Source: Deltaproteobacteria bacterium (GTDB lineage: Bacteria; Desulfobacterota; Binatia; UBA12015). From it: a DNA stretch of 64,000 bases. Made by a program: the position numbers and the translations under genes. The stretch is taken from the NCBI GenBank assembly GCA_016874795.1, contig VGTG01000004.1:11734-75733 (forward strand), in the 5' to 3' direction. Within the stretch, counting starts at the first letter, position 1. Each line of letters begins with the position of its first letter. Of the stretch, positions 7,097 to 60,647 are shown one piece after another. The notes below the pieces were generated by a model that saw nothing but the letters and a program-made list of their open reading frames with translations, did not search any database and was not told the DNA's origin.

Positions 7097-7112
7097 AGCC
7101 CGCCGGACGCCT

Positions 7113-8249: not shown

Positions 8250-8258
8250 ACCGCTCGC

Positions 8259-9503: not shown

Positions 9504-9579
9504 GCGACGGTCTCGCGCGCTTCGTCGCAGGCGTCAAGTGACGCGCGCCGTCGCGCTGTGTGTGCTAGGCCGGTCCGCC

Positions 9580-10053: not shown

Positions 10054-10279
10054 CGGGCGCGCGGCCCCCGGTTCGTCGCGCGCTGCACCGGCTCGACGAA
10101 AGAGCGGTCGGCGCGTCCGAGCCTCCCGGGCTCGGGCGCGCCTCCCCGCGCTCCGTCCCCGAAGCGCCCAGCCACCCCTCATCTCAAACCGCGTAGGGTC
10201 TATCGGCACGCCCCGCGGGAGCTTTAGCCGCCGCCGTAGTCGACCGTTCGATTTCCGCGGGGCATAGTCCCGTCGTGAG

Positions 10280-13877: not shown

Positions 13878-14233
13878 GGGGGCGACCAGGTTTCGACGGA
13901 GGTTATGAGGTCGAGGGCTGCACGCCGAGGATCCCGGTTGGCCTCGTTAATCATCCGGGGCTGCAAACTAACTGCAGACAATTTCTACCACCTCCAGGCG
14001 GCTTAGTTCCGCCCGGCGCTCGCCCGGTCCTCTCCCGAGGGGCTGAAGCGAGTGTCATTTAATCGGGATCGGAGTCGCGCCCCTGCCAGGGAGCGCGCCT
14101 CTTAAACTTTCCTGGCTGGCTGCAGCGGACCCCGCTCACGGGGGCCAAAGCGGCGAGATCAAATCGTGAGCTAAGCGTGTAGTGGCTTTCGGTCGAGTGC
14201 CTTCGGACGGGGGTTCGATTCCCCCCGCCTCCA
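13878..14233 (+). ncRNA. ssrA: tmRNA (transfer-messenger RNA, one-piece)
   Basis: The 5' acceptor GGGGGCGACCAGGTTTCGACGG and the 3' T-arm/acceptor GGACGGGGGTTCGATTCCCCCCGCCTCCA align with E. coli tmRNA, including the GCCGAGG...GGCCTCG pseudoknot region. The internal tag frame is ...GCA GAC AAT TTC TAC CAC CTC CAG GCG GCT TAG (ends AA-stop). Confidence 0.85.
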
Positions 14234-15332
14234 GTGTTGCGACCAGTTCGAACCTGCTTCCGAGGTCGGCCTGGTCGAGAAGGTCGAGAACCTCGAGAGA
14301 GGTGTCGGCCTGGTAGTACGGCTTCCCGACCTCCGGCCGCAGCGGCCGGAGGCGGATCGGGCCGAGAACGCGGCGCAGGACGAGGGCGGACCGAGAGGTG
14401 TTCCGGTTCAGGACCTCGGCGAACGGTCGCAGGCGATCCGCGATCCATTCGATCGGGGGTGCCTGGAACACGGCTTCGACGGTCGCTTCGAGAGCACCGA
14501 CCTCGATCCGCAACCGATCGACTTCGCGCTCGGCTTCTTCCAGCGCCTGTCCAAGCGCACGCGTGCCCTTGCCGTCGGCGATGAACTCGATGAAGTTGGC
14601 GACGCGCCGCCGCTCGACGTCGAGCTTGCCGCGGGTGAGCTTGAGCGTTTCCGGCACGTCCGCATGCAGTCGCTTCACTTCCACTTCCACGCGGTCCAAA
14701 ACGTAGCGGATCGACGCGGAGTCGGAGATGTGCTCGCGGATGGCGGCGAGGACGCACTTCTCCGCGACGCTTCGCCGGACGAGGAGCTTGTTCTCGCAGG
14801 CCGCCTTCGAGGCTCCGAGGCATCCGTAATGTCCGCCGCTCTTGCCACTCACCTGCGCCATCGACTTTCCGCAGCTCCCGCACCGGAGGAGTCCGGCGAG
14901 CAGGTGAGGCGGATTCGTCTCGACGTAGCTCCGCTGACGCCCCGCCGCTCCCTTCGGCCCCCGACGAACCGGCCACACGCGGCCGACCTCCTGCCAGCGC
15001 TTCGTGACCCGCTGCCAGCAATCCTCGGAGACGAGGCGGAGGTCTTCGTCCTGCCGGACGTCCCATTCGTTTTCGGGCTTGGGCACTCGACGCTTGCGGC
15101 CGGTGAGCGGGTCGCGGCGGGTTTCGGTTCGATTCCAGATCCAGCGCCCGCTGTACTTCTGGTTCTTGAGGACCCGGCTGACCGTGGACGGCGACCACCT
15201 CTTCCACAGACCCTTCCGTCCGGGAACACCACGAGCATTGAGGTCGGCGACGATCGCTTTGATCGAGACGCCCGCGGCGAAGTCGCCGAAGATCTTCCGC
15301 ACGACCTCCGCTTGCGCCGGATAGGGCTTCAT
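14136..15332 (-). pseudogene. Large serine recombinase lacking the N-terminal resolvase catalytic domain (recombinase domain, zinc-ribbon and coiled-coil only). Its 3' end overlaps the ssrA 3' end
   Basis: The ORF begins directly in the recombinase domain (KIFGDFAAGVSIKAIVADLNARGVPGRKG...STVSRVLKNQKYSG), then the zinc ribbon (LLRCGSCGKSM...YGC) and coiled-coil. No resolvase-type Ser catalytic domain was found upstream in the minus frames read. The sequence upstream of 15332 instead encodes a transposase on the other strand. Confidence 0.65.
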
Positions 15333-16653: not shown

Positions 16654-17460
16654 TCACTTCGCTCGGCCGCCCGTCTCCTGCATCATCCGCGCGAGGTGAG
16701 CCTGGAAGTCCTTGTGCGCGGCGACGGTGGTCGTCATGTCCGCCGACATCTGCTGGTGGATGCGGAAGCCCATCAGCTCCCAGGCGCGTTTGAGCAGAAG
16801 CTTGCACGCGGTGAGCGTCGTGACCGGACACATCGCGATCTGCGCGGCCATCTCCTCGACCGTCTCCTCGAGCTTGTCGCGCGGAACGACCTCGTTCACG
16901 ATGCCGAGCTCGAGCGCCTGCTGCGCGGTGAGCTTCCGGCGAAGGTAGAGGTACTCGGCCGCGCGCTTGTAGTTCATGAAGATCCACGGCTCGATCATCG
17001 TCTCCGCGCCCGGCAGGCCCATCAGGTACGTGTGCGGCATCTGGAACCACGCGTCCTCCGAGCAGACCGTGATGTCCGGGAGGAGCGCCCAGTACGATCC
17101 GCCGCCGGCGGCGTAGCCGTGGACCTGTGCGATCGTCGGCTTCGGGAACTCCCACAGCCGGAGCATCGGGTGCAGAAAGAGCTTCGTGTGTCCCTGCCAG
17201 GTCGTTCCTGTACGCTCGAGGTTCTCCTTGAACTCGGGATAGTCGCCGGTCGCGACGTGCCCGGAGGAGAAGCCTCGTGCGGTCGACTTGATGATCAGAA
17301 CCTTGACGTCGTAGTCGTACTCCGCGAGCCCTAGGGCCTTGTCGAAGGCCCACACCATCTCCGAGTCCTGCAGGTTGGCCTTCTCCGGCCAGTTCATGAT
17401 GAGCCGGGAAACGGCGCCGTCCTTCTCGTAGATCACTCGTCCCAGGTCTTGTCGTTCCAT
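16654..17460 (-). CDS. Enoyl-CoA hydratase/isomerase (crotonase) family
   Basis: MERQDLGRVIYEKDGAVSRLIMNWPEKANLQ... has a crotonase fold with oxyanion-hole region HGYAAGGG. The longer six-frame ORF upstream of the ATG is Arg/Ser-rich junk. Confidence 0.8.
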   Translation of the reverse strand: MERQDLGRVIYEKDGAVSRLIMNWPEKANLQDSEMVWAFDKALGLAEYDYDVKVLIIKSTARGFSSGHVATGDYPEFKENLERTGTTWQGHTKLFLHPMLRLWEFPKPTIAQVHGYAAGGGSYWALLPDITVCSEDAWFQMPHTYLMGLPGAETMIEPWIFMNYKRAAEYLYLRRKLTAQQALELGIVNEVVPRDKLEETVEEMAAQIAMCPVTTLTACKLLLKRAWELMGFRIHQQMSADMTTTVAAHKDFQAHLARMMQETGGRAK

Positions 17461-33287: not shown

Positions 33288-34522
33288 GAGCCAACGCGAT
33301 GGATCGGGATCTGTCCCCGGACCTCCTCCTCGAACCGTCCATCATCGACGATCCGTACGACTTCTATCGTCGTCTCGTTTCGGAAGCTCCGGTGTGGCAC
33401 GTGCCCGGGACGGACATCGTGATCGTGAGCTCCTGGGAGGCCGTGACGCAGGTCGTGAACCGCGTCGAAGACTTCTCTTCGAACATCCACTCGATCCTTT
33501 GCCGGAGCGCGCTCGGCACCCCGGAGCTGGTCCCCATGGGATTCGGCGGTCTCCAGGCGCTCGCCACCGCCGATCCGCCGATGCACGGAGCGCATCGGAG
33601 CACGGTGTTTCCGGAGCTCGTCGCCCGCCGGATGGCCGGACTCCGAACGAGCATCGAAGCGCTCACGGAAGAGTGCCTCACCCACGCACTGTCGAAGCGT
33701 CGGTTCGAGGTGATGGGCGACCTGGCCAACCTGATCCCGATCCGGGTCGTGAGCCAGCTGATCGCCTTCCGGGGCGCGGACCCCGCGGCGCTGCTCGCCG
33801 CCGCATTCGACTCCACCGCGATGCTCGCCGCGACGCTACCGCTCGAGGGGATTCAAGCGCTCATGGCACGTACGGTCGACATCGCGACCTGGATCGCCGA
33901 CCAGCTGCAGCAATCCGTCATTCAGGGCGGGGAAGGAATCTTCGGAGTGATCGGCGCGGCCGTGGCCGCCGGGGAGATGGAATTCGACGCGGGGCTCGTC
34001 ATCCTGCACACGCTGCTGAGCGCCGGCGGCGAATCGACGACGAGCCTTCTCGGCAACGCGATCCACATGCTCGCTCTCGATCCGCGATTGCAGACTCGGC
34101 TTCGCACCGAGCCACACCTCGTCGTGCCCTTCATCGAAGAAGCTCTCCGGCTCGAGTCGCCATTCCGCTACCATCTTCGCCGCGCGAGTCGCGCGAGCGA
34201 GGTGCAGGGTGTCGGCATTCCAGCGGGATCGACGCTGCTGCTCTTCTGGGGTGCTGCCAACCGCGATCCGGCCGAGTTCGAGCGTGCCGACGACGTGATG
34301 CTCGATCGAGCCACTCCGAAGCACCACGTCGCGTTCGGACGGGGAATCCACTTCTGCGTCGGCGCGCCGCTCGCTCGCCTCGAGGCGGAGATCGTCCTCA
34401 CGCGGCTTCTTGCGCAAACCGAGCACTTCGAGCTCGATCCAGATGCCGTGCCCGAACGGGTCGACAGCCTGATGGTTCGTCGCTTCGACACCTTGCCGTT
34501 GGTGGCGGAGTTGAGCTCTTGA
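33284..34522 (+). CDS. Cytochrome P450 (second)
   Basis: FGRGIHFCVGAPLARLE, ESPFRY (EXXR/PERF region). Confidence 0.85.
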   Translation: MRANAMDRDLSPDLLLEPSIIDDPYDFYRRLVSEAPVWHVPGTDIVIVSSWEAVTQVVNRVEDFSSNIHSILCRSALGTPELVPMGFGGLQALATADPPMHGAHRSTVFPELVARRMAGLRTSIEALTEECLTHALSKRRFEVMGDLANLIPIRVVSQLIAFRGADPAALLAAAFDSTAMLAATLPLEGIQALMARTVDIATWIADQLQQSVIQGGEGIFGVIGAAVAAGEMEFDAGLVILHTLLSAGGESTTSLLGNAIHMLALDPRLQTRLRTEPHLVVPFIEEALRLESPFRYHLRRASRASEVQGVGIPAGSTLLLFWGAANRDPAEFERADDVMLDRATPKHHVAFGRGIHFCVGAPLARLEAEIVLTRLLAQTEHFELDPDAVPERVDSLMVRRFDTLPLVAELSS

Positions 34523-47368: not shown

Positions 47369-48499
47369 ATGGATTTCGGATTCGACGAGCAGCAGAAGGC
47401 ACTCGCCGCAAGTGTTCGTGACGTGATCGATTCGAGATTCGGGATGGCCTACGTCCGCGGGATGCTCGACGATCCGCGGGGATTCTCGCTCGAGTTCTGG
47501 GCGGAGGCGGCGAAGCTCGGCTGGCTCGGACTTCTCGTCGAGGAGAGATACGGCGGGCTCGGGCTCGGTCCCCTCGAGATGGCCGCGGTGCAGCAGGAGC
47601 TCGGGCGAGGCGTGGTCCCCGGGCCGTACCTCGCGTCGGCGGTGCTCGCGAGCGTCGCTCTTCAGCGGTACGGCTCGGAGCGACAGAAGAAGCGCTGGCT
47701 CCCGTCGCTGGCGGCAGGCGACGAGATCGCCACTGTGGTTTTCCCGGAGGCTCATCGCGCGTCGGAGGAGGGCTTCGTCGGCTTCACCGCGGAGCGTCCC
47801 TCGCGAACCGCGTTTCGCGTGACGGGCGAGCAGCGCTTCGTCCTCGACGCGCACGTGGCGGATCTCGCCGTCGTGCCCGCGATCGCGGAGGAGGGAGTCA
47901 CACTCTTTCTGGTCGAGACATGCTCTCCGGGCGTAACCACGCAGCCGATCCGCACGATCGACGACACGCGGCGTCTGGCGACGATGCGTTTCGATGGGAT
48001 CGAGGTCGAAGCGAATCAGATTCTGGGAGAAGCGGGCGCGGGTCTCGTGCTCTTGGAGGCGGTCGCGGACGTCGGTCGCGTGGCGTTGTCCGCCGAGATG
48101 GTGGGCGGCGCCGAGCGAGCGCTCGAGATGTGCATCGATTACGCGCGCGTCCGCGAGCAATTCGGGAGGCCGATAGGCAGCTTCCAGGCGATCCAGCACA
48201 AATGCGCCGACATGCTCGTCCGCGTCGAAGGGGCTCGCGCGATGACTCTTGCGGCAGCAACTTCACTCGCACACGGAGACGCGGACGCGACTTCCGACGC
48301 GGGCATCGCAAAGTCGTGGTGCGGGGAGGCGTACCGGATGGTGACGACGGAGGGTGTGCAAATCCACGGCGGTCTCGGCTTCACATGGGATCTCGACATG
48401 CACCTGTTCTACAAGCGCGCCAAGTCGAGCGAGACGTCCCTTGGAGATGCGCGCTTCCATCGTGCACGCCTGGCCGAGCGGGCACTCGGGGAGAGCTGA
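47369..48499 (+). CDS. Acyl-CoA dehydrogenase
   Basis: MDFGFDEQQ..., FGRPIGSFQAIQHKCADM, IHGGLGFTWD. Confidence 0.85.
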   Translation: MDFGFDEQQKALAASVRDVIDSRFGMAYVRGMLDDPRGFSLEFWAEAAKLGWLGLLVEERYGGLGLGPLEMAAVQQELGRGVVPGPYLASAVLASVALQRYGSERQKKRWLPSLAAGDEIATVVFPEAHRASEEGFVGFTAERPSRTAFRVTGEQRFVLDAHVADLAVVPAIAEEGVTLFLVETCSPGVTTQPIRTIDDTRRLATMRFDGIEVEANQILGEAGAGLVLLEAVADVGRVALSAEMVGGAERALEMCIDYARVREQFGRPIGSFQAIQHKCADMLVRVEGARAMTLAAATSLAHGDADATSDAGIAKSWCGEAYRMVTTEGVQIHGGLGFTWDLDMHLFYKRAKSSETSLGDARFHRARLAERALGES

Positions 48500-48919
48500 A
48501 TGGCGAAGCGTGCGATCGAGCCGGGGCTCCTACGTCTCCCGGACGGCGAGGGTCGTGAGCTTCGGCTCTGCGCGAATCGTTGTGACGGCTGCGGCGTCGT
48601 GTTCCATCCGCCGCGCCCCGTCTGTCTCGCTTGTCATGGACGAGCCATGAGCGATGCACCTCTCGAGGGGGCGGGTACCCTGTACGCGTTCACGCGTGTG
48701 GCGATGGCGATGCGTCCCGGAATGCGCACGGAGCGCGGCTACTGGGTCGCGCACGTGGACCTCGACGGCGGACCGCGCGTGCAGGGTCTTCTCGCTCCCG
48801 ACGTTGCCGAGCCGCGCATCGGCATGCGGCTGCGACTCGGGATCGAGACCGTCCGCGTCGAGGAGAGCGGGGAGGAGATCGTGGTGCACCACTTTGCCGC
48901 GGACGAGGCTCGAGCGTGA
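48500..48919 (+). CDS. DUF35 / OB-fold plus zinc-ribbon protein (thiolase-associated)
   Basis: CANRCDGCGVVFHPPRPVCLAC zinc ribbon followed by an OB fold. The ATG directly abuts the upstream stop. Confidence 0.75.
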   Translation: MAKRAIEPGLLRLPDGEGRELRLCANRCDGCGVVFHPPRPVCLACHGRAMSDAPLEGAGTLYAFTRVAMAMRPGMRTERGYWVAHVDLDGGPRVQGLLAPDVAEPRIGMRLRLGIETVRVEESGEEIVVHHFAADEARA

Positions 48920-50073
48920 AGACCGAGAACATCGCTCTCCTCGGCACGGCGATGACGCGTTTCGCCGATCATCGCGACCGCACGCTCTTCGAGCTCGCCA
49001 CCGAGGCGGGGCTTGGCACTCTGACGGATGCCGGAATCGACCTGCGCGACGTGGGTGAAGCGTACGTCGGCTCGATGATGGCGCCGCCGATGCTCGGGGT
49101 GCGGATCTTGAAGCAGCTCGGGCTGACGGGGCTGCCCGTCGTGACGATCGAGGCGGCTTCCGCATCGGGACTCGTGGCTCTGCGCGAAGCGTCGTTCGCG
49201 GTCTCGAGCGGCCGTTGCGAGGTCGCGCTCGCCTTGACCTACGAGCACGCGATGCAGCGCCTGCCCGGGAGCGGAGGCATGACGCCGGGCTACGAGACGT
49301 TGATGGCGTCCCCCGCCTCGTTCGCGCTCTGGGCGAGCCGCCGGATGCACGAGCGCGGAACCAAGCCCGAGCACCTGGCGAAGCTCGCCGCCAAGAACTG
49401 GAACGCGGCGCGCGAGAACCCGCTCGCATATCACCGCGCCGATCACGTCGTCACGCCGCAGGAAGTCCTGGCCTCGCCGAGCGTCGCTTCGCCGTTGACG
49501 CAGATGATGGGAGCGCCGATGGGCGGAGGGGCTGCGGCAGTTCTTCTCGCGAGCCCGGACCGCGTACGGCGCCGGCGTCCCGGCGAGCCGCTCGTGCGCG
49601 TGCTCTCGTCGTCCCTGGTGACCGAGTCCTGGGATCCCGAATGGATCGCACTCGGACCCGCGGTCGGACCGCCCGGAATGACCGCCGACGCCGCCCGCCG
49701 GGCGTTCGAAGCCGCCGGTGTCGGTCCGGAGGACGTGGACGTCGCCTACGTGCACGACTCGTGGATCAACGAGGAGCTCGAGTACTACGAGCAGCTCGGC
49801 CTCTGCGCGCCGGGCGAGGCCGAGAAGCTCGCGGAGGAAGGCACCACCGCGCTCGGCGGAAGAATCCCCGTGAACGTCGACGGTGGACTCGTCGCGCGCG
49901 GACACCCGATCGGCCCGACGGGCCTCGCCCAGGTGCACGAGATCGGGCTACAGCTCCGCGGGCGAGCCGGCAGGCGTCAAGTCGAAGGAGCGACGACCGC
50001 GCTGGCGCAGCTCGTCGGCGGAGGCAGCTCGGCGATCGTCTGTTTGTTTCAGCGCGACGGTCGCGTCGCGTGA
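48916..50073 (+). CDS. Thiolase-like protein, SCP-x / lipid-transfer type
   Basis: About 385 aa with a thiolase fold (IEAASASGLVAL, HPIGPTGL). The GTG start overlaps the DUF35 stop. Confidence 0.8.
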   Translation: MKTENIALLGTAMTRFADHRDRTLFELATEAGLGTLTDAGIDLRDVGEAYVGSMMAPPMLGVRILKQLGLTGLPVVTIEAASASGLVALREASFAVSSGRCEVALALTYEHAMQRLPGSGGMTPGYETLMASPASFALWASRRMHERGTKPEHLAKLAAKNWNAARENPLAYHRADHVVTPQEVLASPSVASPLTQMMGAPMGGGAAAVLLASPDRVRRRRPGEPLVRVLSSSLVTESWDPEWIALGPAVGPPGMTADAARRAFEAAGVGPEDVDVAYVHDSWINEELEYYEQLGLCAPGEAEKLAEEGTTALGGRIPVNVDGGLVARGHPIGPTGLAQVHEIGLQLRGRAGRRQVEGATTALAQLVGGGSSAIVCLFQRDGRVA

Positions 50074-50083
50074 CGGCAGGCCG

Positions 50084-51265
50084 TCAGAGCTCGAGCTCGA
50101 GGTGCGCGTGCCCGCGCACCGTCGCCGTCAGCACCCGCTTCTGGCTTCCCTCGACCACCCGGTAGCGCGGAAAGCGTTCGGCAAACTCCTCGAGCAGCAC
50201 GCGCGCCTCCAGGCGAGCGAGAAACTGCCCCAGGCAGATGTGGAGCCCCGATCCGAAAAACAGGTTCCGCGGGGGGCGCCGATCCGCGATGAACCGATCC
50301 GGCTCGGGGAACTCGCGCTCGTCCCGGTTGGCTGCGCCGAGGAGAAAGTAGACCCAGCTCCCCTTTGCAATCGTGACTCCGTGGATCTCGACGTCGCGCG
50401 TCGCCACGCGCGCGACGTAGTGCGACGGCGTGTCGTAGCGGAGCGCCTCGTCGACGGCCGGCGCGATCAGGCTTCGGTCGGAGAAGATCCGCTCGCGCTC
50501 CGAAGGGTGCTCGGCGAGTGCTGCGAGCGCATTGCCGATCAGCTTGGCGGTAGTCTCGGAGCCGGCCGCGGCCATCAGGTTGCAGAACATCAGCACGTCG
50601 TGGTCCGAGAGATCGAGATCGTCGCCGTCCCGTGTCAGGTGATCGCTCTGGCAAATGAGGCTGATCATGTCGTCGCCCGGCGCGCGTCGACGCTCTTCGA
50701 TCAAGCCCCGAATGTAGTCGGAGATCTTGCGCGACGCCTCGACGGCGGCCCGCGGGACGGCGACTTGTCCCTCCTCGCGAGCGAGAAACGTGTCCCACCA
50801 CTCGCGCAGCACGGGACGGTCCTCTCGGGGCACGCCGAGGAGCAGGCCGATCACGTCCGACGGAATCGGGCTCGCGATCTCGACCGCGGCGTCGACCACG
50901 GTGCCGGGACGCAGAGGATCGAGCACCTCGCGCACGATCTCGCGGACCTGCGGCTCGAGCGCGGCGATGCGGTTCGGCGTGAAGGCGCGGCTCAGGATCC
51001 CTCGCACGTGGTCGTGCCGCGGGGGATCCATCGAGATGATCGAATACTTCCGGCCATCCTCGTCCGGGTTCTCGATGGCCGGACCGTGCCGCGAGGAGAA
51101 CCCGTCGTGATCGCGGAGCGCGCTCCACACATCCTCGAAGCGCGAGAGCACCCACATCCCGACTTCTTCGCAGCGGTAGACCGGCGCCTCGTCGCGGAGT
51201 CGTCGGTACACCGGATACGGATCGTCGAAGATCTCCCGCGAGAAGGGGTGGTAGTAGACCTTCAC
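50084..51265 (-). CDS. Cytochrome P450 (third)
   Basis: FGSGLHICLGQFLARLE heme loop, I-helix AAAGSETT. Confidence 0.85.
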   Translation of the reverse strand: MKVYYHPFSREIFDDPYPVYRRLRDEAPVYRCEEVGMWVLSRFEDVWSALRDHDGFSSRHGPAIENPDEDGRKYSIISMDPPRHDHVRGILSRAFTPNRIAALEPQVREIVREVLDPLRPGTVVDAAVEIASPIPSDVIGLLLGVPREDRPVLREWWDTFLAREEGQVAVPRAAVEASRKISDYIRGLIEERRRAPGDDMISLICQSDHLTRDGDDLDLSDHDVLMFCNLMAAAGSETTAKLIGNALAALAEHPSERERIFSDRSLIAPAVDEALRYDTPSHYVARVATRDVEIHGVTIAKGSWVYFLLGAANRDEREFPEPDRFIADRRPPRNLFFGSGLHICLGQFLARLEARVLLEEFAERFPRYRVVEGSQKRVLTATVRGHAHLELEL

Positions 51266-51268
51266 CCG

Positions 51269-52072
51269 TCACGTCTCATCGGCGAAGACGCCCGGCGTCT
51301 CGCCGTAGTCGACGGGGGAGAGCTCGTTCAGACCGCCGTCCGCGTGCACCACGGTCCCCGTCAGGAAGCGAGCGGCGTCGCTCGCTAGGAAGACGACCAC
51401 CGGCGCGATCTCCTCGCGCGGGCTCGCGCCGCGCCCCATCGGGCTGCACGCTGCCGTCCGGGTGTAGTTGTCCCAGACCGTTCCGATCATGCGCTCCTGC
51501 ACCGGCGTCAGCGCGAACGGGCAGAGGACGTTCACGCGGATGCCGTGGACCGCCCATTCGTTGGCGGCGACCTTGGAGAGCGCCGTGATGGCACCCTTCG
51601 CTGCGGAGTACGCGGCCGTGTACTTCATCCCGGTCAGCGCAGAGCCCGAAGTGAAGTTCACGATCGAGCCGCCGCGCTCCTTCAGGTGCGGCAGGCACGC
51701 CTGCATGAAGCGAAGCGTCGCGAGCGGACCGGTCGCGTGAGAGAGGTCCCAGTCTTTCATCGAGGTGCGCTCGATCGTCCGGGGAGGGGCGAAATACTGG
51801 GCGGCGTTCACGAGGACGTCGATCCGGCCGAATGCCTCCGTCGCTTCCGCCACGCTGCGCTCGACGTCTTCTGGCTTTGCGACGTTGCAGCGCGTGAAGT
51901 GCGCCCGCCCGCCGGCATCCACGATCGCGCCTGCGGCGGCGGCACCCGCTTCGGCGTTGATGTCCGCGATCGAGATCGAGGCTCCTTCCGCTGCCAGGGC
52001 CTCGCACACCGCTCGCGCGATTCCCTGTCCTCCACCCGTGACGAGCGCCGCGCGACCGACGAGAGCTCCCAT
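51269..52072 (-). CDS. Short-chain dehydrogenase/reductase (SDR)
   Basis: ALVTGGGQGIARAV, NAAQ, YSAAK. The true start was chosen at MGALVGR. The long upstream ORF is junk. Confidence 0.8.
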   Translation of the reverse strand: MGALVGRAALVTGGGQGIARAVCEALAAEGASISIADINAEAGAAAAGAIVDAGGRAHFTRCNVAKPEDVERSVAEATEAFGRIDVLVNAAQYFAPPRTIERTSMKDWDLSHATGPLATLRFMQACLPHLKERGGSIVNFTSGSALTGMKYTAAYSAAKGAITALSKVAANEWAVHGIRVNVLCPFALTPVQERMIGTVWDNYTRTAACSPMGRGASPREEIAPVVVFLASDAARFLTGTVVHADGGLNELSPVDYGETPGVFADET

Positions 52073-52098
52073 GTCCCGATTCCTCTCCGCCGCGGCGC

Positions 52099-53238
52099 TC
52101 ACTTCCGAGGCATTCCGAGCAGGCGCTGCGCGACGATGTTGCGCTGGATCTGCGACGTACCACCGAAGATGGATTGCGCGAGCGACCAGAAGTAGTCGTC
52201 CAGGCGCGGCGTGCGGTGAGAGAGTGCTTCCGCGCCGAGGAGGTCCATCATGACGCCGTGGACGGCGCGATCGGCTCGAGTGAGCAGGAGCTTGTCGACC
52301 GAGCCGGCCGCACCGGGAGCATCTCCTCCCATTCGTTTCGAGAGCGTCCGCTGCGCCTGGATCTCGAGGACGCGGAGGGCGACCTCCGCGCGAGCGAGAG
52401 CGATCCGACCGGCCGCGTCGACCTCGAGCTCGCCCTTGCGCAGGCGCTCTTCGAGGCCCTGGATCGTGCGCCGCATCCGCGCGATCCAGCCGTTGTCTGC
52501 GGGTCCGCGCTCGAAACCGAGAAGGAAGTTGGCGATCTCCCAGCCCTGTCCCGGTGCGCCGAGAAGAGCCCCTGCCTCGACCTCGACCCCGTCGAAGAAC
52601 ACCTGCGCGAACTCGTTCGACCCGTAGGCCGTGACGATCGTTCGCACCTCGATTCCGCGGAGATCCATCGGAACGAGGAAGACGGAGATTCCCTCGTGCT
52701 TCCTGCGGTCGGGCTCGGAGCGCGCCAGGAGGAAGCACATCTGCGAGTAGCGGGCGTCGGACGTCCAGATCTTCTGGCCGTCGATCCGGTAGCGAACGGC
52801 GCCATCTACGCCGCGAAAGCGCTCGGCGCGCGTCGCGAGGCTCGCGAGATCCGAGCCTGCTCCGGGCTCGCTGAACCCTTGGCACCAACGCTTCGTGTGC
52901 TCGAGGAGGCTTCGAAGATGGACCGTCTTCTGCTCGGGTGTCCCGAACTTCGCGATCGCTCGGGCGAGATGCCCCTGGCCGAGAGGAAGGGGCGCGCCGG
53001 CGCGCCCGAGCTCTTCGTTGAAGATGGCCTCGAAGGATTCCGGAAGACCCTGCCCGCCGAACTCCTTCGGGAGAGACAGCCAGTCATACCCGGCGTCCGC
53101 GAGGCGGCGATGCCAGGCGCGCTCCGCGGCTTCGCGTGCGTCGGACTCGTGCGGAACCTCCGGCGGCACGTTCTCGGAGAGCCATGCGCGGAACCGGCGG
53201 CGAAAGACCGCCTGTTCAGGGTTGTCGCTGAAGTCCAT
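52099..53238 (-). CDS. Acyl-CoA dehydrogenase
   Basis: MDFSDNPEQ..., QGFSEPGAGSDLASL, FGGTSQIQRNIVA. Confidence 0.85.
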   Translation of the reverse strand: MDFSDNPEQAVFRRRFRAWLSENVPPEVPHESDAREAAERAWHRRLADAGYDWLSLPKEFGGQGLPESFEAIFNEELGRAGAPLPLGQGHLARAIAKFGTPEQKTVHLRSLLEHTKRWCQGFSEPGAGSDLASLATRAERFRGVDGAVRYRIDGQKIWTSDARYSQMCFLLARSEPDRRKHEGISVFLVPMDLRGIEVRTIVTAYGSNEFAQVFFDGVEVEAGALLGAPGQGWEIANFLLGFERGPADNGWIARMRRTIQGLEERLRKGELEVDAAGRIALARAEVALRVLEIQAQRTLSKRMGGDAPGAAGSVDKLLLTRADRAVHGVMMDLLGAEALSHRTPRLDDYFWSLAQSIFGGTSQIQRNIVAQRLLGMPRK

Positions 53239-53317: not shown

Positions 53318-55342
53318 GTGAACGAAGAGATGCGAACGGAGCCGGAGGCATCCTCGGCGCTGTTGCGGCGCTTCTACGAGACCGCACGCACGATCCGCGA
53401 GTTCGACGATCGGATGCGTCGCGGTCTCGCCTCGGGCGAGTTCATGATGAGCTACTGGCCCGTCGAAGGGCAGGAGGCGATCTCGACCGGAGTATGCGCC
53501 GCGCTCGAGCCGGACGATCGGATGGTGATCACCTATCGGTGCGCCGCCGACGCGATCGCGAAGGGCGTCGACCTCGGCGAGCTCGCGGGCGAGCTCCTCG
53601 GGAAGTCGACGGGAACGTCGGGCGGTCGCGGCGGCGCGATGGGCATCAGTGCGCCCGACATCGGACTTCTCGCCACGACCGGCATCGTCGGTGCGGGCGC
53701 ACCGATCGCGACGGGCGTCGCTCTCGCGGCCCGACAGCTCGGCTCCGGACGCGTCACCGTCGTCTCGTTCGGGGACGGCGCGACGAGCATCGGCGCGGTC
53801 CACGAGGCGATGAACCTCGCGTCTCTCTGGCAGCTTCCGCTCGTGTTTCTCTGCCACAACAATCTCTTCGGCGAGGGAACGCCGGTCGCGGAGTACACGC
53901 GCACCGAGCGTTTCTCGGATCGGGCGGCCGGCTACGGAATGCCGGGTGTCACGGTCGACGGCACCGACCCGGTCGCGGTCCACAAAGCGGCGAAGGAGGC
54001 GGTCGCACGTGCGCGTAGAGGCGGTGGTCCGACGTTCCTCGAAGCGATCGCGTTCCGGTTGAACGGGCACTACTTCGGCGATCCCTGCACCTACGTCGAC
54101 GCCGCGAAGCTCGAAGCGGCCAGGGGGAACGAGCCGATCGCGAAGCTGCGGAATCGACTCGTCTCCGGCGGCGTCACGGCGGCCGACCTCGATGCCCTCG
54201 ATCAGCGCATCGCGGACGACGTCGATCGAGCGGTGAGCTCCGCGGTCGCGGCGGACATGCCCGCTCCCGAGACTCTCTACGCGCACGTCTACGGCGGGAC
54301 CGACCGGTTCGGCGCCGTCTCCGAAGGGAAGCGCATCGCCACGTCGGTGAGCGCGGGAGCGGAGAGCGAGCTGTCGCTCGCCCAGGCCGTGAACCAGGCT
54401 CTGGAGCAAGCGATGGCGCGCGACGACAGAGTCGTGCTTCTCGGCGAGGACATCGCCGATCCGATGGGCGGTCTCTTCACCTGCACGAAGGGTCTGTCGA
54501 CCCGGTTCGGCCGCGATCGCGTGCGCGCGACGCCGATCGCCGAGGAGGCGATCGTGGGCTGCGCCATCGGGGCCGCGCTCGACGGTCTTCGCCCGGTCGC
54601 GGAGCTCATGTTCGTCGACTTCCTCGGCGTCTGTCTCGATCAGCTCGCAAACCACGCTGCAAAGCTGCGCTTCATGACGGGTGGCCGCGTGCACGTCCCG
54701 ATCACGCTGCGCTCCGTCGAGGGGGCGCACTCGGGACCGCAGCATTCGCAGGCGCTGGAGGCGTGGTTGACGCACGTCCCCGGCCTGAAGGTCGCGGTCG
54801 CGAGCACACCGCGCGACGCGAAGGGCCTCCTCACGACGTGCATCGAGGACGACGACCCCTGCGTCTTCATCGAGCCGATGCAGCTCCTTCTCGCGCGCAC
54901 GATGCGCGGTCTCGTACCGGACGGGGAGATCCGGATTCCGCTCGGCCTCGCAGACGTGAAGCGCGACGGAAAGGACGTGACCGTCGTCTCGTGGGGCGCG
55001 GTCGTGCACGCGGCCCTGCAGGCGGCGGCGGAGGTCGCCTCCGAGGGGATCGAGGTCGAGGTCGTCGATCTGCGGAGCCTCGTCCCGCTCGACCTGGAGA
55101 CGGTTCTCGCCTCGGTCGGGAAGACGCGCTGTCTCGTGATCGCGCACAGCGCCACGACGTTCTCGGGGTTCGGTGCGGAGATCGCGGCGCTGGTCTCGGA
55201 GCGCTGCTTCGGCGAGCTGAAGGCGCCCGTCTCTCGCGTCGGAGCGGCCTTCACGCCCGTGCCGCGGGCACACTCGCTCGTCGCGGCGCACAGCCCCGGA
55301 GCGCCGCAGATTGCGGCCGCAGTGCGGCAGGTCTGCCGATGA
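53318..55342 (+). CDS. 2-oxoacid (pyruvate/acetoin/branched-chain type) dehydrogenase E1 component with alpha and beta subunits fused in one 674-aa polypeptide
   Basis: The N-terminal half is a TPP-binding E1-alpha (GDGATSIGAVHEAMNLASLWQLPLVFLCHNN). From about residue 335 it is a transketolase-like E1-beta (LSLAQAVNQALEQAM...VVLLGEDIADPMGG...). It is one continuous frame. Confidence 0.8.
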   Translation: MNEEMRTEPEASSALLRRFYETARTIREFDDRMRRGLASGEFMMSYWPVEGQEAISTGVCAALEPDDRMVITYRCAADAIAKGVDLGELAGELLGKSTGTSGGRGGAMGISAPDIGLLATTGIVGAGAPIATGVALAARQLGSGRVTVVSFGDGATSIGAVHEAMNLASLWQLPLVFLCHNNLFGEGTPVAEYTRTERFSDRAAGYGMPGVTVDGTDPVAVHKAAKEAVARARRGGGPTFLEAIAFRLNGHYFGDPCTYVDAAKLEAARGNEPIAKLRNRLVSGGVTAADLDALDQRIADDVDRAVSSAVAADMPAPETLYAHVYGGTDRFGAVSEGKRIATSVSAGAESELSLAQAVNQALEQAMARDDRVVLLGEDIADPMGGLFTCTKGLSTRFGRDRVRATPIAEEAIVGCAIGAALDGLRPVAELMFVDFLGVCLDQLANHAAKLRFMTGGRVHVPITLRSVEGAHSGPQHSQALEAWLTHVPGLKVAVASTPRDAKGLLTTCIEDDDPCVFIEPMQLLLARTMRGLVPDGEIRIPLGLADVKRDGKDVTVVSWGAVVHAALQAAAEVASEGIEVEVVDLRSLVPLDLETVLASVGKTRCLVIAHSATTFSGFGAEIAALVSERCFGELKAPVSRVGAAFTPVPRAHSLVAAHSPGAPQIAAAVRQVCR

Positions 55343-56333
55343 CGGAGGTGCGGATCCCGAAGACCGGCGACGCCGTCGAGGAAGGAACGCTCGTCGAGTG
55401 GCTCGTCGAGGACGGTGCGCGCGTCGAGCGCGGCGATCCGCTGTACCTTCTCGAGACCGACAAGGTCGCGATGCAGATCGAGGCGCCGAGCGCGGGCGTG
55501 GTCGCGCGCATCGGAGTGCCGGGCGAGATCTACCCCGTCGGCGAGCTGGTCGCGACGATCACCGAGCGACCGGGATGAGTCTTGGGGGGAGCGAGGCTTC
55601 GGCCACGGATCCCCGCGGCGAAGTTTGCGTCGAGCGGCTCTCCCACATCCGCCGCTGAATCGGCAAGCACATGGCGACGTCTCGTTCGACGTCGCCTCAC
55701 ACGGTCATGGCGATGGAGGTCGACTACACCCGCGTGCGCGCGGAGCTCGACCGCGCGAAGAGGGAAGGACGTTCGCTCTCGTACCTGCCGTTCGTCGCGG
55801 CCGCGGTCGCGGAAGCGATCGTCGACTTCCCGCACGTGAACGCATCCATCCTCGGCGACGACCTGCACGTCTTCCCCAAGCTGAACCTCGGCATCGCCGT
55901 CGATCTCGACTTCCAGGGCTTGATCGTCACCGTCGTTCGCGGCGTTGCGGAGAAGCCGTTGGCCGACGTCGCAAGCGAGATCGAGGAGCTCGCGACACGC
56001 GCTCGAAATCGGGCTCTTTCGCCCGACGACGTCGCGCACGGGACCTTCACGATCACCAACGCGGGCGGGTACGGGACGCTCTTCACCGCCGCGATCATCA
56101 ACCAGCCGCAGGTCGCGATCCTTTCCACCGACGGGATCACGCCCAAGCCGGTCGCGGTTGCGCGGGAGAGCGGTGGCTGGGATGTCGAGGTCCGTCCGAT
56201 CGGTGTGCTGACGCTGACCTGGGGCCACCGCGCCTTCGACGGAGCCTACGCCGCGGCCTTTCTCAAGCGGTCGAAGACGGAGCTCGAGCAGCGCGACTGG
56301 CGCGCCGCCGTCGAAGGGAGAACTGAAGAATGA
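55339..56333 (+). pseudogene. Dihydrolipoamide acyltransferase (E2) disrupted: intact lipoyl domain (55339-55578), then a stop and frameshift, then the catalytic domain lacking its first roughly 40 residues (55671-56333)
   Basis: The lipoyl domain is IPKTGDAVEEGTLVEWL...LETDKVAMQIEAP (lipoyl-Lys in ETDKV) then TGA. The second ORF in another frame has the catalytic motif LTWGHRAFDGAYAAAF (DHRxxDG) but starts mid-domain. No PSBD/linker is present. Confidence 0.65.
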
Positions 56334-56680
56334 CGACGACCGACTTCGGCCCGTACGTGCACTACGAGAAGGAAGACGCGGTCGCTCGCATCGTCCTCGA
56401 CGACCCGAAGCGAGCCAACGCGCAGTCGTTCCGCGAAGCGAGCTGCAGAAGACGGCCGAGGATCTCGCGGCGAAGATCGCGCGCGCGCCCGGATCGACGC
56501 TCGTGGCGACGAAGACGACGATCCGGCGCGCGTGGGAGCTGATGGGCATGCGGATCCATCAGCAGATGTCGACCGACATGGTCGCGATCGTGGCCGGGCA
56601 CACGGACTTTCAGACGAAGCTGAGAGAGCTCGCGGCTTCCGGGAAGAAGCCGCGCGAGGTGACGAAGGAGGAGAAGTAGC
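56330..56680 (+). pseudogene. Enoyl-CoA hydratase remnant with an internal deletion of about 150 codons plus a frameshift
   Basis: N-terminal 38 aa (MTTTDFGPYVHYEKEDAVARIVLDDPKRANAQSFREAS) in one frame, joined directly to the C-terminal region in another frame (LQKTAEDLAAKIARAPGSTLVATKTTIRRAWELMGMRIHQQMSTDMVAIVAGHTDFQ). The C-terminus closely parallels the intact paralog at 16654-17460 (KRAWELMGFRIHQQMSADMTTTVAAHKDFQ). Confidence 0.7.
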
Positions 56681-57130
56681 TCAGGCGCCCGCGCGCGAGC
56701 CTCGCTCGATCAGCTCGATGCGGGTGCCGTCGGGATCGAGAGCGAAGAGGCCGCGGTTGCCGCTGCGAAACGCGGATCGCGTGCTCTGCAGCACGCGGCC
56801 GCCGTGTTTCTCGATCGATTCGGCGACGGCATCGAGTGTTTCGACGGCGAAGCTGAGGTGTGTCAGCCCGAGCTCGTTCATCGCTCGCCGCTCGCCCGTT
56901 CCTCGATGGCCGGGCGCGTCGTAGTGCAGGAGCTCGATGCGCCAACCGTCGCGCTCCAGGTACACCAACCGAAGGCGCGTGCCTTCGACCTCGAGGATCC
57001 GGGCGGTCGCGTCGTCGCCGACGTCGAGTCGACCAACCTCGCGAAAGCCGAGAGCTTCGCGATAGAACGCGAGGGATCGATCGAGATCGCTGACACAGAT
57101 GCCGAGATGCGTGAGCCGGAGTTCTGTCAC
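56681..57130 (-). CDS. VOC-family (glyoxalase/bleomycin-resistance/dioxygenase fold) protein
   Basis: RLTHLGICVSDLDRSLAFYREALGF...LGLTHLSFAVETLD has duplicated beta-alpha-beta-beta-beta modules. GTG start. Confidence 0.75.
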   Translation of the reverse strand: MTELRLTHLGICVSDLDRSLAFYREALGFREVGRLDVGDDATARILEVEGTRLRLVYLERDGWRIELLHYDAPGHRGTGERRAMNELGLTHLSFAVETLDAVAESIEKHGGRVLQSTRSAFRSGNRGLFALDPDGTRIELIERGSRAGA

Positions 57131-58273: not shown

Positions 58274-59336
58274 CCACTACTTCAGTTGTCTCGGTTTGCG
58301 CCGCCGGCCGATCGCGATTCTGCAAAGAGGCCTCGTGGTCCCGAGTTGGCTGCCCACCTTGAGATCGACGGCACTTCGGTAGAGGAGGTGGCGGTCCAGA
58401 TCGTCGGTGCGTCAATGCGCCGACGAGAGCCCTCGCTCGGCGGACGTCCGCAGCGAGCAGCTCGAGCGCAAGCTCGACGCCGCGGCTGCCGCCCGCGCCG
58501 TGACCGTACAGCTAGGCCTGGCCCGCCATGGAAGCGCGAGCTCCCAGCGAGAAGCTTTCACGACGTCGCTTCCGCGGCGGACTCCGCCCTAGCTTAGCTA
58601 TAGCTAGCGGAGGTCTCGATGCGGTCACTGACTGCGTCGGCAACGGGTGCGACCAGGTCGATCGTGGCGGGCGTGCCGTCGAGTTGCCGGCCGCCTTGAG
58701 GGCTCCGAAGAGCGCAAAATTTCATCAGCAATCGTCTGGCGCCTCGAAACGGAATCCTCCCGAGGCCAGAGGGCGTGTCAAGAGATTCGTTTCGGTCGGC
58801 GAGGCTAGTCTGGAATGGCGCCCAATCCTCGGCCGGTGGAATGGAGGATGAGGTGGTTGGGATAGGCCTGTACGAATGGGCTATCGCGCTCTCATGGGGG
58901 TGGGAACCCGGCGCGTCACAGCGGGCCGCAACATGGGGAACGCAGCAGCGAGATCAATCGGAAGTATGTGAAAAAAGTACTGGGCAGCCTGCGCCCGCTG
59001 GCAAGCTTGGAACCGCGGGCGAGGCGGCCGGACTGTGAGCGGCCGGTGTCGAGCCGGTAGGAAGAGGTGGAGACAGGAACGAGCGAGAAGCGAGTTGAGG
59101 CGAACCTCGAGCATTGGAAAGCAGACGGCCAGCCGGGCTGCGGTTCGAATTGGTTGCGAGCGCGTCCACTTTTCAACCATCGGTTTCGACTAAGTTCGTT
59201 TTCTTTCGGGCTGTGACAGTCCGCTGTGACGGTTTTCCTGTCACAGCGATGCTCTCCGCGACGCCCTCGCCGTCCTTTCGGCGACGGAGCCGATGCTGGA
59301 ACATCAACGAGGCCAGCGCTGGCCTTGTTCTCGCGG
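58274..59336. other. About 1-kb non-coding, locally lower-GC region with short palindromes (GCTAGC/TAGC repeats at about 58588-58612; CTGTGAC-n9-GTCACAG at about 59228-59250; GGCCAGCGCTGGCC at about 59305-59318). No credible ORF
   Basis: All six-frame ORFs here are Arg-rich or low-complexity with no family resemblance. Confidence 0.5.
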
Positions 59337-59630
59337 TCATCCAGCCAACGCCAGATTCTCGCGGAGCACTCGCGGATGCCGCGCGGCGATGCGGAGCAAC
59401 GCCACGGCAGGTCCCTCCGGCATGCGACGGCCCTGCTCCCAGTTGCGAAGCGTGTGGACGCTGATCCCGAGTGCCACCGCGAACATCTCCTGAGAGAGAC
59501 CGGTGAAGCGCCGCAGTGCCGAGATGTCCTCGCCGCTCTCGATCTTGCCGCGTGCCAGCCGATCACGGAGCCTGCGAGGGATGGCGCGCTCGAAGTCCTT
59601 TTCCGTCAGCTCTGGGATGTCGTCCTTCAT
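59337..59630 (-). CDS. HTH (XRE-like) antitoxin partner of a BrnT-family toxin
   Basis: 97 aa. LSQEMFAVALGISVHTLRNWEQGRRMPEGPAVALL is an HTH motif. It is located immediately downstream of, and overlaps by 4 nt with, the DUF497 toxin gene. Confidence 0.7.
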   Translation of the reverse strand: MKDDIPELTEKDFERAIPRRLRDRLARGKIESGEDISALRRFTGLSQEMFAVALGISVHTLRNWEQGRRMPEGPAVALLRIAARHPRVLRENLALAG

Positions 59631-59935
59631 CGCTTTCCTCCGATGCGATCATAGAAGAGCGTGCGCTCACGCATGGTCGCCTTGCGAGCGCTGATGATCC
59701 TCACGAGGTCGTCCTCTTCTTCCGTGTACGCGACCACGATCACGCCGCTGCGGATCGGACCGATCGCCAGAAAGCGATCTTCGTCATCGCTGTGCTCGAC
59801 GTCAAAGAGGACGAGGTAGTTCTCGGCACCCTCGAAGAGAGCGCGCGCTTCATCGAAGCTGACCCCATGTTTCTCGCGATTCGAGTGGTCCTTCGCCGGA
59901 TCCCAGGTGACCCGCACTTCGAGATTATAAGCCAA
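59627..59935 (-). CDS. BrnT-family (DUF497) type II toxin
   Basis: VTWDPAKDHSNREKHGVSFDEARALF...LRIISARKAT is the hallmark DUF497 N-terminal motif. Confidence 0.8.
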   Translation of the reverse strand: MAYNLEVRVTWDPAKDHSNREKHGVSFDEARALFEGAENYLVLFDVEHSDDEDRFLAIGPIRSGVIVVAYTEEEDDLVRIISARKATMRERTLFYDRIGGKR

Positions 59936-60360
59936 TGGCTGAGTCAGTCAACGGACGATGACAACATCCGCCGGATCTTCGAGAACGTGGATCGGAGTCG
60001 TGAGAGCACGCCGCGCAACTCGGCGAGACCAGCGAGGGCGAAGAGGGTGGCGTCGCCTCTGCGAGAATCGCGCCAGCACAACGCAGATTCTACGGTTGCT
60101 CGCGGGCACCTGGGCTGAGTTGACCTCGGCCGCAGACGAGAGCAAATCGAGCGGCGTGATCCGACTTCGTCGAACAGCCACCCCTCTGTTTTCGACCGAC
60201 AACGGGCCTGAGGTCTTTCATCAGCAGTTGCGTCCACTTACACGTCGTGCCCACCTGCGGGAGAGGTCGATGGAAGCGAAGTCGTCTTCTCCGTCGAGGC
60301 TGTTGCCGGTAGTCCGCCGACGGTTGGTTCCAGCTCCCAGTCGCGGAGGCACTGGGCGAA

Positions 60361-60647
60361 TGGAACCCGGCGCTGACGATGCAATATACGAAGCGATCCT
60401 CGAAGTCGTCGAGCGGATGGCCGGTGTTATGGAACGGAGCCCGAGAGCATTCAGTGAGATGGACGAGGAGGCCCTCCGAACCCACTTCCTCGTACAGCTC
60501 AATGGGCAGTTCGAGTGGGACGCTACCGGCGAGACCTTCAACTTCACGGGCAAGACCGACATCCTCGTGAACTACGAGGGGCGTCGATTCCCCCCGTCTC
60601 CACTTTTCATCGCCCGATCTTGCTCGGGATTCTCTCGAGCGACCTGA
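60361..60647 (+). CDS. Small hypothetical protein (95 aa), possibly a truncated remnant
   Basis: Normal-composition core (AIYEAILEVVERMAGVMERSPRAFSEMDEEALRTHFLVQLNGQFEWDATGETFNFTGKTDILVNYEG) with a junk-like C-terminus. It is divergent from the TA operon, and no family was recognised. Confidence 0.3.

Follow-up and report, generated by a model that had tools for sequence, protein, structure and literature searches.

A probable recently and partly inactivated copy of a catabolic operon with natively separate lipoyl and E2 catalytic genes

A 64,000-nucleotide stretch of a genome labelled Deltaproteobacteria bacterium (GenBank assembly GCA_016874795.1, contig VGTG01000004.1, positions 11,734 to 75,733; hereafter the window, whose numbering is used throughout) carries an operon for a lipoate-dependent dehydrogenase. 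This locus is very probably one copy of a conserved catabolic operon that natively has separate genes for the lipoyl carrier (LIP) and the catalytic subunit of E2 (CAT), and this copy has recently been inactivated in part. We found three lesions: the codon for Arg28 of CAT is replaced by TGA, the crotonase (enoyl-CoA hydratase, ECH) gene has an out-of-frame deletion, and the aldehyde dehydrogenase (ALDH) gene is absent; the fused E1 alpha–beta gene and LIP are intact (Table 1). The gene architecture is conserved in relatives, and the lesions were reproduced in other assemblies. The G+C content of the region is ~68%.

The closest intact orthologous locus (L060) lies on a 178-kb ENA contig, with which the window is collinear at 82%–84% nucleotide identity. 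The order of the genes in L060 is cytochrome P450 (P450), E1 (673 aa), LIP (79), CAT (251), ECH (275), ALDH (484), and a convergent glyoxalase gene; 5′ of the operon it has thiolase, P450, short-chain dehydrogenase/reductase (SDR), and acyl-CoA dehydrogenase genes, as in the window. The P450 gene that precedes E1 in L060 is missing at that place in the window, and it was not counted as a lesion because the outgroup locus L004 lacks it there too. A P450 that is 75% identical to it is encoded at 33308–34507 (+).

Compared with L060, the ECH gene of the window has a net loss of 478 nt, which is not a multiple of three. The alignment stops at position 8858 of L060 and resumes at 9341, with 8859–9340 missing, which leaves 33 N-terminal codons (56330–56428) followed in another frame by 80 C-terminal codons (56437–56679). 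Residues 34 to ~191 of the 275-aa orthologue are gone, and a short repeat, AGTCG, is found at the junction. Neither fragment had a Pfam match; the intact orthologues (272–275 aa) match ECH_1. An earlier reading of the window, made without database searches (the sequence-only reading), had described a crotonase gene with a large internal deletion, and the comparison of orthologous loci bore this out. The same comparison revealed the absence of ALDH, which that reading had missed. The ALDH gene lies 3′ of the crotonase gene in L060, L061, L062, and L004, and in the window a single nucleotide separates the crotonase stop codon from that of the convergent glyoxalase gene. Loss in the lineage of the window is the parsimonious reading, and this third lesion is probable but less certain than the other two.

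The lesions were compared with seven other assemblies from at least six samples (ENA ERZ27247963; Logan SRR7985589 and SRR7990525; JGI 3300020193, 3300020198, 3300020214, and 3300020200). The TGA context, the crotonase junction, and the ALDH-less junction were the same in every one of them whose contig reaches the site in question. Four single-nucleotide polymorphisms (53222, 55500, 56066, and 56614) segregate among the assemblies, which shows that the contigs do not merely duplicate a single assembly. That errors of sequencing or assembly produced the stop codon and the deletions, as the metagenome-assembled genome (MAG) that is the source and a G6 homopolymer near the LIP/CAT boundary might suggest, is therefore extremely improbable, and the indel errors for which the sequence-only reading had wanted resequencing do not lie behind them.

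That reading held that a single E2 chain downstream of E1 had decayed through a stop, a frame change, the loss of its peripheral subunit-binding domain (PSBD), and the loss of the first part of the catalytic domain. The lipoyl domain is intact, as it stated: LIP covers 72 of the 73 profile positions of Pfam Biotin_lipoyl (E = 5e-19), contains the lipoyl-lysine motif LETDKV, and has a dN/dS of 0.27 against L060. The supposed break after this domain is a four-nucleotide ATGA overlap (55575–55578) between the stop of LIP and the start of CAT, and the boundary is the same in the seven closest relatives. Four-nucleotide ATGA overlaps also link E1 to LIP and CAT to ECH, which suggests translationally coupled, stoichiometric synthesis.

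The relatives come from a scan of one genome per species, in which 56 related loci were found. The seven closest (L004–L010) belong to Gemmatimonadota MAGs and a "Deltaproteobacteria" MAG, with E1 proteins 68%–78% identical to that of the window. In each of these, the lipoyl open reading frame (ORF) ends within 1–2 residues of the domain, its TGA overlaps the GTG or ATG of a separate catalytic ORF, and the −1 frame relation between LIP and CAT is repeated; the stop–start overlap is also present in L060. A clean stand-alone ORF of 74–81 aa with a conserved lipoyl Lys was found in 41 of the 46 loci that have a lipoyl sequence after E1, and only two of the 46 (Pelobacter and Planctomycetota) have a classical long E2. 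Where a catalytic gene adjoins LIP, it is a separate ORF of ~250 aa. CAT orthologues have 245–255 aa and match PF00198 only. Likewise, all 10 CAT ORFs sampled from diverse taxa, including the isolates Pseudomaricurvus alkylphenolicus, Trinickia symbiotica, and Paraburkholderia, had PF00198 as the sole domain and lacked both a lipoyl domain and a PSBD (PF02817). On a plasmid of Paraburkholderia sp. PGU19, RefSeq lists four separate genes, for E1 alpha, E1 beta, a "lipoyl domain-containing protein" of 76 aa, and a "2-oxo acid dehydrogenase subunit E2" of 250 aa.

Because intact orthologues and related loci share them, the stop and the altered frame that follow the lipoyl domain, like the absent PSBD, reflect a native gene boundary and not decay. 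The sequence-only reading was right that a PSBD is absent and wrong to take this as a loss, since the lack is native to the family. A corrected sequence that restores a single E2 frame, which it named as the finding that would overturn it, is beside the point because intact orthologues never have such a frame. Half of the features it listed were misread, and its "decayed E2" amounts to one nonsense codon in a natively split E2. Seen in isolation, with the lipoyl and catalytic domains in different frames, a stop between them, and no PSBD, the locus could pass for a classical single-chain E2 (lipoyl–PSBD–catalytic) broken by a frameshift, a stop, and PSBD loss. This is highly improbable, given that the boundary, the frame relation, and the lack of a PSBD are shared by intact orthologues and 41 related loci, cultured isolates included, and that purifying selection acts on LIP as an ORF of its own. 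We also rejected programmed −1 frameshifting that would fuse LIP to CAT: the ATGA/GTGA stop–start overlaps explain the constant −1 frame in close relatives, no X XXY YYZ slippery site precedes the LIP stop, and proteobacterial relatives have spacers, any frame relation, and separate annotation of the two genes.

The lesion in CAT lies further downstream. The frame that opens at ATG 55575 reads MSLGGSEASATDPRGEVCVERLSHIRR*IGKHMATS..., and the start of the catalytic domain, which had been thought missing, is encoded at 55575–55655, directly 5′ of the lone in-frame TGA that cuts it off. Codon 28 encodes Arg in 8/8 compared orthologues (CGG in L060, CGC in L004, and Arg in L005–L010). The 38 nearest homologues of full-length size (235–275 aa, PF00198 alone) were taken from a search of 5.8 billion proteins, and the window CAT has three changes, R58L, P119T, and D217G, at positions invariant in 38/38 of them. 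The last of these alters the first Asp of the DHRxxDG motif, which is Gly in the window only and Asp in all 38 and in L004–L010; the His and the distal Asp-Gly of the motif are kept.

A functional CAT might still be made if the TGA were recoded (as selenocysteine, Sec, or by read-through) or if translation restarted at a downstream ATG. A perfect 9-bp GC-rich hairpin (55673–55696) begins 17 nt past the TGA, and an in-frame ATG lies 13 nt downstream of it, at 55671, from which NCBI annotates a 220-aa product. However, L060 and L062, with Arg codons at the site, share the hairpin, so its origin is not tied to that of the stop. E1, LIP, and CAT all normally terminate in TGA in this operon, the conserved residue at the site is Arg and not Cys or Sec, and no tRNA-Sec gene was found within the 64-kb window. 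As for a restart, ATG 55671 has no preceding Shine–Dalgarno sequence, and its product would miss Pfam profile positions 1–19, that is, the first strand and half of the first helix. The neighbouring genes are destroyed too, and a rescued CAT would stand in a broken pathway. Rescue by either route is unlikely, and we give it very little credence. The hairpin itself lies within the CAT coding sequence and is formed by two occurrences of the palindrome GACGTC (Thr-Ser codons), and it is kept as an 11-bp stem in L060 (about 8096–8121) and L062, with one C–G to T–A double change.

To date the decay, we counted lineage-specific amino acid changes in the window and in its sister L060, with L004 as the outgroup. 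CAT had 19 changes in the window and eight in L060 (χ2 = 4.5), the ECH remnants had 11 and four (χ2 = 3.3), and the two together 30 and 12 (χ2 = 7.7). The counts were 39 and 27 in E1 (χ2 = 2.2), seven and five in LIP (χ2 = 0.3), and 46 and 32 in both combined (χ2 = 2.5), none of which is significant. The substitution rate is thus mildly raised in the damaged genes, and as it is raised in CAT and ECH and not in E1 and LIP, the decay is recent and, so far, limited to the three distal genes. Pairwise dN/dS is low (0.14–0.29) because most of the divergence is older than the lesions. Long-term decay of CAT was rejected: distant outgroups gave no acceleration, and only the closer sister L060 gave a modest excess. 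The locus shows the features of a recent pseudogene, with disabling changes at sense sites, agreement across assemblies, and a raised lineage-specific rate. The earlier proposal that the complex is being lost is supported for this copy, by the nonsense codon, the ECH deletion, and the probable loss of ALDH, and not by the E2 decay that had been cited for it.

Several points weigh against our conclusion. The rate excess of CAT alone is marginal (p about 0.03), and it is not significant with more distant outgroups. L005–L010 also lack ALDH, so that its loss rests on parsimony over four loci (L060, L061, L062, and L004). The carrier shuttle that we propose below as the working mechanism of the operon is read, for every member of the family, from domain content alone.

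The E1 gene shows no lesion. As the sequence-only reading had it, E1 alpha and E1 beta are joined in one 674-aa chain: Pfam E1_dh covers residues 23–317, Transket_pyr 352–524, and Transketolase_C 544–665, with E values from 1e-70 to 7e-36, as expected of a thiamine diphosphate (ThDP)-dependent E1 of the classical 2-oxoacid dehydrogenases. The ThDP motif GDG-X26-NN (residues 152–183) is intact, and a GGAGGG ribosome-binding site lies 5 nt 5′ of the GTG start. Across 88 columns invariant among 21 other fused E1s, the protein deviates at one residue (R605C), a count not outside what intact relatives show. Its sequence matches NCBI MBM4265364.1 exactly; that entry comes from a MAG labelled Deltaproteobacteria bacterium. 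A single-frame fused E1 occurs in 22 of the related loci, and the fusion can be regarded as real but typical of the clade.

What the intact part of the operon now does can be explained in two ways. The first is that E1 and LIP are retained and work with a CAT encoded elsewhere in the genome, so that only the cis copies of CAT, ECH, and ALDH are redundant and decaying. E1 and LIP have neither a lesion nor a significant rate increase; nothing in the system acts as a tethering domain, which would make its components sharable in principle; many relatives have natural E1–LIP pairs without an adjoining CAT; some carry as many as five paralogous clusters; and a full-length crotonase paralogue is encoded in the window at 16684–17436 (−; 63% identical to the ECH of L060). 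The sequence-only reading had offered a trans-encoded E2 as an alternative, and the lack of a tethering domain in the family, together with the natural E1–LIP pairs without CAT, makes this more plausible. On the other side, no second CAT, LIP, or E1 was found in the 64 kb, E1 has a non-significant trend to more changes (39 vs. 27), its R605C change falls on an otherwise invariant Arg, and a polar loss of the distal genes may simply have preceded that of the proximal ones. We consider retention with a CAT in trans possible, though tentatively so.

The second explanation is that the whole operon is already functionless and that E1 and LIP are intact for lack of time. The three lesions fall in three consecutive genes of one pathway, even the dead genes have little excess divergence, a sign of recent inactivation, and a second damaged copy of the operon (L062) has lost the 5′ 60% of E1. 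Against this, the 2.3 kb of E1 and LIP are free of frameshifts and stops, in contrast to two disabling lesions in the 1.1 kb of CAT and ECH, and the damage in L062 may partly reflect long-read errors. A wholly functionless operon is a serious candidate that we place somewhat below an even chance. The decay is an ordinary case of genome erosion, which probably affects one redundant catabolic cluster. Its redundancy is plausible, since one Gemmatimonadota MAG has five paralogous clusters.

The damaged copy L062 (ENA ERZ25039549 contig_80285, 6988–11053) has frameshifts in E1, ECH, and ALDH, and its E1 is present only from about residue 417 on, beside unrelated toxin–antitoxin genes. The frameshifts may be long-read indel errors; the truncation of E1 looks structural.

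Table 1. Features of the operon and its neighbourhood in the window
Feature	Position	Strand	Basis and remarks
Fused E1 alpha–beta, ThDP-dependent dehydrogenase, 674 aa	53318–55342	+	Appears intact
Stand-alone lipoyl carrier protein (LIP), 79 aa	55339–55578	+	Pfam Biotin_lipoyl; intact; own ATG overlaps the E1 stop (ATGA)
E2 catalytic-subunit gene (CAT), 251 codons, without lipoyl domain or PSBD	55575–56333	+	Sole domain Pfam 2-oxoacid_dh; nonsense codon inactivates the gene
In-frame TGA, CAT codon 28	55656–55658	+	Arg in orthologues; start of the first catalytic-domain helix, placed by alignment to 1b5s and 3duf
GGC codon, D217G of CAT	56223–56225	+	Homologue comparison; acyltransferase motif DHRAFDG (DHRxxDG) changed to GHRAFDG
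Crotonase (enoyl-CoA hydratase) pseudogene	56330–56679	+	Alignment to L060; junction at ~56436–56440
Junction at the absent ALDH gene (484 aa in L060)	56680–56680		1567 nt of L060 (9581–11147) correspond to 1 nt
Glyoxalase/VOC-family gene	56681–57130	−	Gene calls and Pfam; convergent with the operon; same position in L060, proteins 77% identical
Acyl-CoA dehydrogenase	47369–48499	+	Gene calls with Pfam; conserved upstream partner
DUF35 zinc-ribbon/OB protein	about 48497–48919	+	Translation; full length
SCP-x-type thiolase	48916–50073	+	Gene calls with Pfam
P450	50084–51265	−	Gene calls with Pfam
SDR	51269–52072	−	Gene calls with Pfam
Acyl-CoA dehydrogenase	52099–53238	−	Gene calls with Pfam

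With the PSBD absent and the lipoyl domain a free protein, there is no known means to dock E1 or E3 on the E2 core. An intact system would have three lipoate-dependent functions as separate, untethered proteins: a ThDP-dependent E1 (one alpha–beta chain in this clade), a free 8-kDa LIP, and a CAT of ~250 aa. By analogy with the H-protein of glycine cleavage, the simplest and most likely model for it is a carrier shuttle. E1 would reductively acylate the lipoyl-lysine of free LIP, acyl-LIP would diffuse to CAT, where the acyl group would be passed to CoA, and the general cellular E3 would re-oxidize dihydrolipoyl-LIP. The sequence-only reading was correct that no E3 is nearby: the E3 redox-disulfide motif CxNxGC[IVT]P[ST] was not found in six-frame translations of the 64 kb, and no Pyr_redox gene was called beside the operon in the window, L060, or L062. 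Nor did the 64 kb contain a second lipoyl domain or a second E2 motif.

A lipid- or terpenoid-like compound might give the substrate, an acyloin or oxo intermediate that is split into an acyl-CoA and an aldehyde as in the acetoin system. Such acyloin cleavage would fit because of the neighbouring P450s, SDRs, acyl-CoA dehydrogenases, DUF35–thiolase pair, Rieske oxygenase, and luciferase-like monooxygenase, together with the operonic ALDH. More broadly, we see an even chance that the intact relatives form a widespread class of dismantled lipoate-dependent dehydrogenases, in which a free 8-kDa carrier shuttles among an untethered E1 (an alpha–beta fusion in some clades), a core-only and possibly trimeric acyltransferase, and a housekeeping E3. 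They would act in lipid- or terpenoid-like catabolic operons, perhaps cleave acyloins and not 2-oxoacids, and have an exchangeable catalytic partner.

The 2-oxoacid dehydrogenases are the textbook example of a tethered, swinging-arm multienzyme complex, and the Gram-positive-type pyruvate dehydrogenase (PDH) complex consists of an alpha2beta2 E1, an E2 with lipoyl, PSBD, and catalytic domains, and E3. The two halves of the window E1 are homologous to E1alpha and E1beta of the Gram-positive-type PDH/branched-chain 2-oxoacid dehydrogenases (Geobacillus stearothermophilus PDH; 1w85, 3duf, 1b5s). The best solved-structure matches were 3duf_B/1w85_B for the beta half (E = 6e-82) and human E1alpha for the alpha half (E = 2e-47); CAT aligns with 1b5s across the whole domain, and the lipoyl domain is of the E2 type. 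In contrast to this complex, E1 here is a single polypeptide, the lipoyl domain forms a 79-aa protein of its own, CAT has neither a lipoyl domain nor a PSBD, and no E3 gene is near.

In the acetoin dehydrogenase system (AcoA/AcoB/AcoC/AcoL), AcoC carries the lipoyl domain and the catalytic part in one chain, and the E3 (AcoL) is encoded within the aco operon. The operon resembles this system in its alpha/beta ThDP-dependent E1, which is of the same subfamily, and some of its relatives are annotated as acetoin:DCPIP oxidoreductase. The best NCBIfam match of LIP was the acetoin E2 model NF011457 (E = 7e-19), with 68 bits against a cut-off of 307, and all NCBIfam matches of the operon proteins lie below the family cut-offs. 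If an acyloin were cleaved with release of an aldehyde, the ALDH of an intact operon would fit in. We found neither an AcoC-like chain nor an E3, however, and the operon neighbours (P450s, acyl-CoA dehydrogenases, DUF35–thiolase, and crotonase) suggest that the substrate is larger and lipid-like.

In the glycine cleavage system, the H-protein shuttles as a free lipoyl carrier between the P, T, and L proteins. The working principle proposed here would be shared with it (a free lipoyl protein, separate enzymes, and a general dihydrolipoamide dehydrogenase), and the likeness would be one of mechanism and not of family: LIP is of the E2 type, and its partners are a ThDP-dependent E1 and an acyltransferase of the CAT fold. 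The Pfam matches of LIP were Biotin_lipoyl, Biotin_lipoyl_2, and a weak, below-threshold HlyD_3; GCV_H was not among them, and a GcvH-related NCBIfam model gave only E = 4e-4. An all-library search with LIP was dominated by multi-lipoyl E2s, and its single-domain matches with at least 50% identity all had 75–94 aa. No relevant description of stand-alone E2-type lipoyl proteins or of fused E1 was found in the literature searched, and the layout of an untethered lipoyl carrier with a core-only E2 carries only generic annotation in RefSeq.

The PDH and 2-oxoglutarate dehydrogenase of actinobacteria are a known example of a dismantled core and of an E2 catalytic domain that lacks a lipoyl domain. 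There, OdhA has a lipoyl-less E2 domain fused to E1o, and E2p serves it in trans with its own lipoyl domains (Bruch et al., bioRxiv 10.1101/2020.07.24.212647). The difference is that in actinobacteria the lipoyl domains and the PSBD stay in E2p, whereas here the lipoyl protein is free and there is no PSBD. The CAT of the window's clade comes closest to actinobacterial E2: its best NCBIfam model is TIGR02927 (SucB_Actino), its best solved structures are 9y6t/9y7v, and the actinobacterial E2p 6zzi is among the top seven. Actinobacterial E2p is trimer-only through a C-terminal insertion of three residues, Phe included, that precedes the C-terminal helix (Bruch et al., bioRxiv 10.1101/2020.07.24.212647). 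In an ungapped HMMER alignment, a Trp invariant in the CAT family ("..DW..") sits on the Phe of "EEGAFE" in 9y6t. A trimeric CAT that does not form a core is a lead from this alignment and not a result.

Two types of CAT occur among the related loci. Those of the window, L004–L010, and L060 are like actinobacterial SucB/E2p; those of the proteobacterial loci L019, L022, L026, and L029–L054 are AceF-like (RIQKL..SRNW..IPHVTH) and only 31%–34% identical to the window CAT. E1 and LIP are homologous across all loci. The Paraburkholderia CATs keep an Ala/Pro-rich N-terminal tail that resembles a relic of an E2 linker. E1 with a stand-alone LIP and no adjoining catalytic gene was found in L012–L014, L020, L021, L023, L035, L044, L052, L057, and L058, some of which continue with ORFs similar to FAD-dependent oxidoreductases; in such loci LIP may serve other acceptors. 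The differing CAT types and the CAT-less E1–LIP loci suggest, at the level of sequence, modular and exchangeable partners. The Gemmatimonadota MAG with five paralogous fused-E1/LIP/CAT clusters is Spart_063 (L004, L006, L008, L009, and L010), which implies large-scale paralogy of the system. A crotonase gene is nearby in four of these clusters, and the contig of L010 ends soon after CAT.

This large family, with members in cultured Paraburkholderia, Trinickia, and Pseudomaricurvus and in many MAGs, has the arm as a free protein and lacks the docking domain. It would be a natural experiment on the need for tethering, and it would offer a tractable minimal system for the recognition of a lipoyl domain by E1. 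For annotation, adjoining genes for a "lipoyl domain-containing protein" and a short "E2" should not be flagged as frameshifted E2 pseudogenes.

Upstream of the operon, the block 47369–53238, with its six conserved partner genes, is collinear with L004 and L060 at 75%–84% nucleotide identity. The gene caller gave a truncated DUF35 gene (90 aa) in this block; we rejected it, as translation gives a full zinc-ribbon and OB protein from ~48497. In the surrounding 20 kb, the region 26018–47364 is a dense catabolic island that encodes a luciferase-like monooxygenase, acyl-CoA dehydrogenases, P450s, an amidohydrolase_2 protein, an SDR, the alpha subunit of a Rieske ring-hydroxylating oxygenase, another crotonase, and an SMP-30/gluconolactonase-like protein. 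A tmRNA gene at 13878–14236 (+), with the tag peptide ADNFYHLQAA, was the sole match from Rfam and from ARAGORN within the window. At 58700–60500, just beyond the 3′ end of the operon, the G+C content falls to about 0.60–0.63, and this stretch contains genes for a BrnT-type toxin and a helix-turn-helix antitoxin, including 59337–59935 (−). It may be the edge of a mobile or variable segment.

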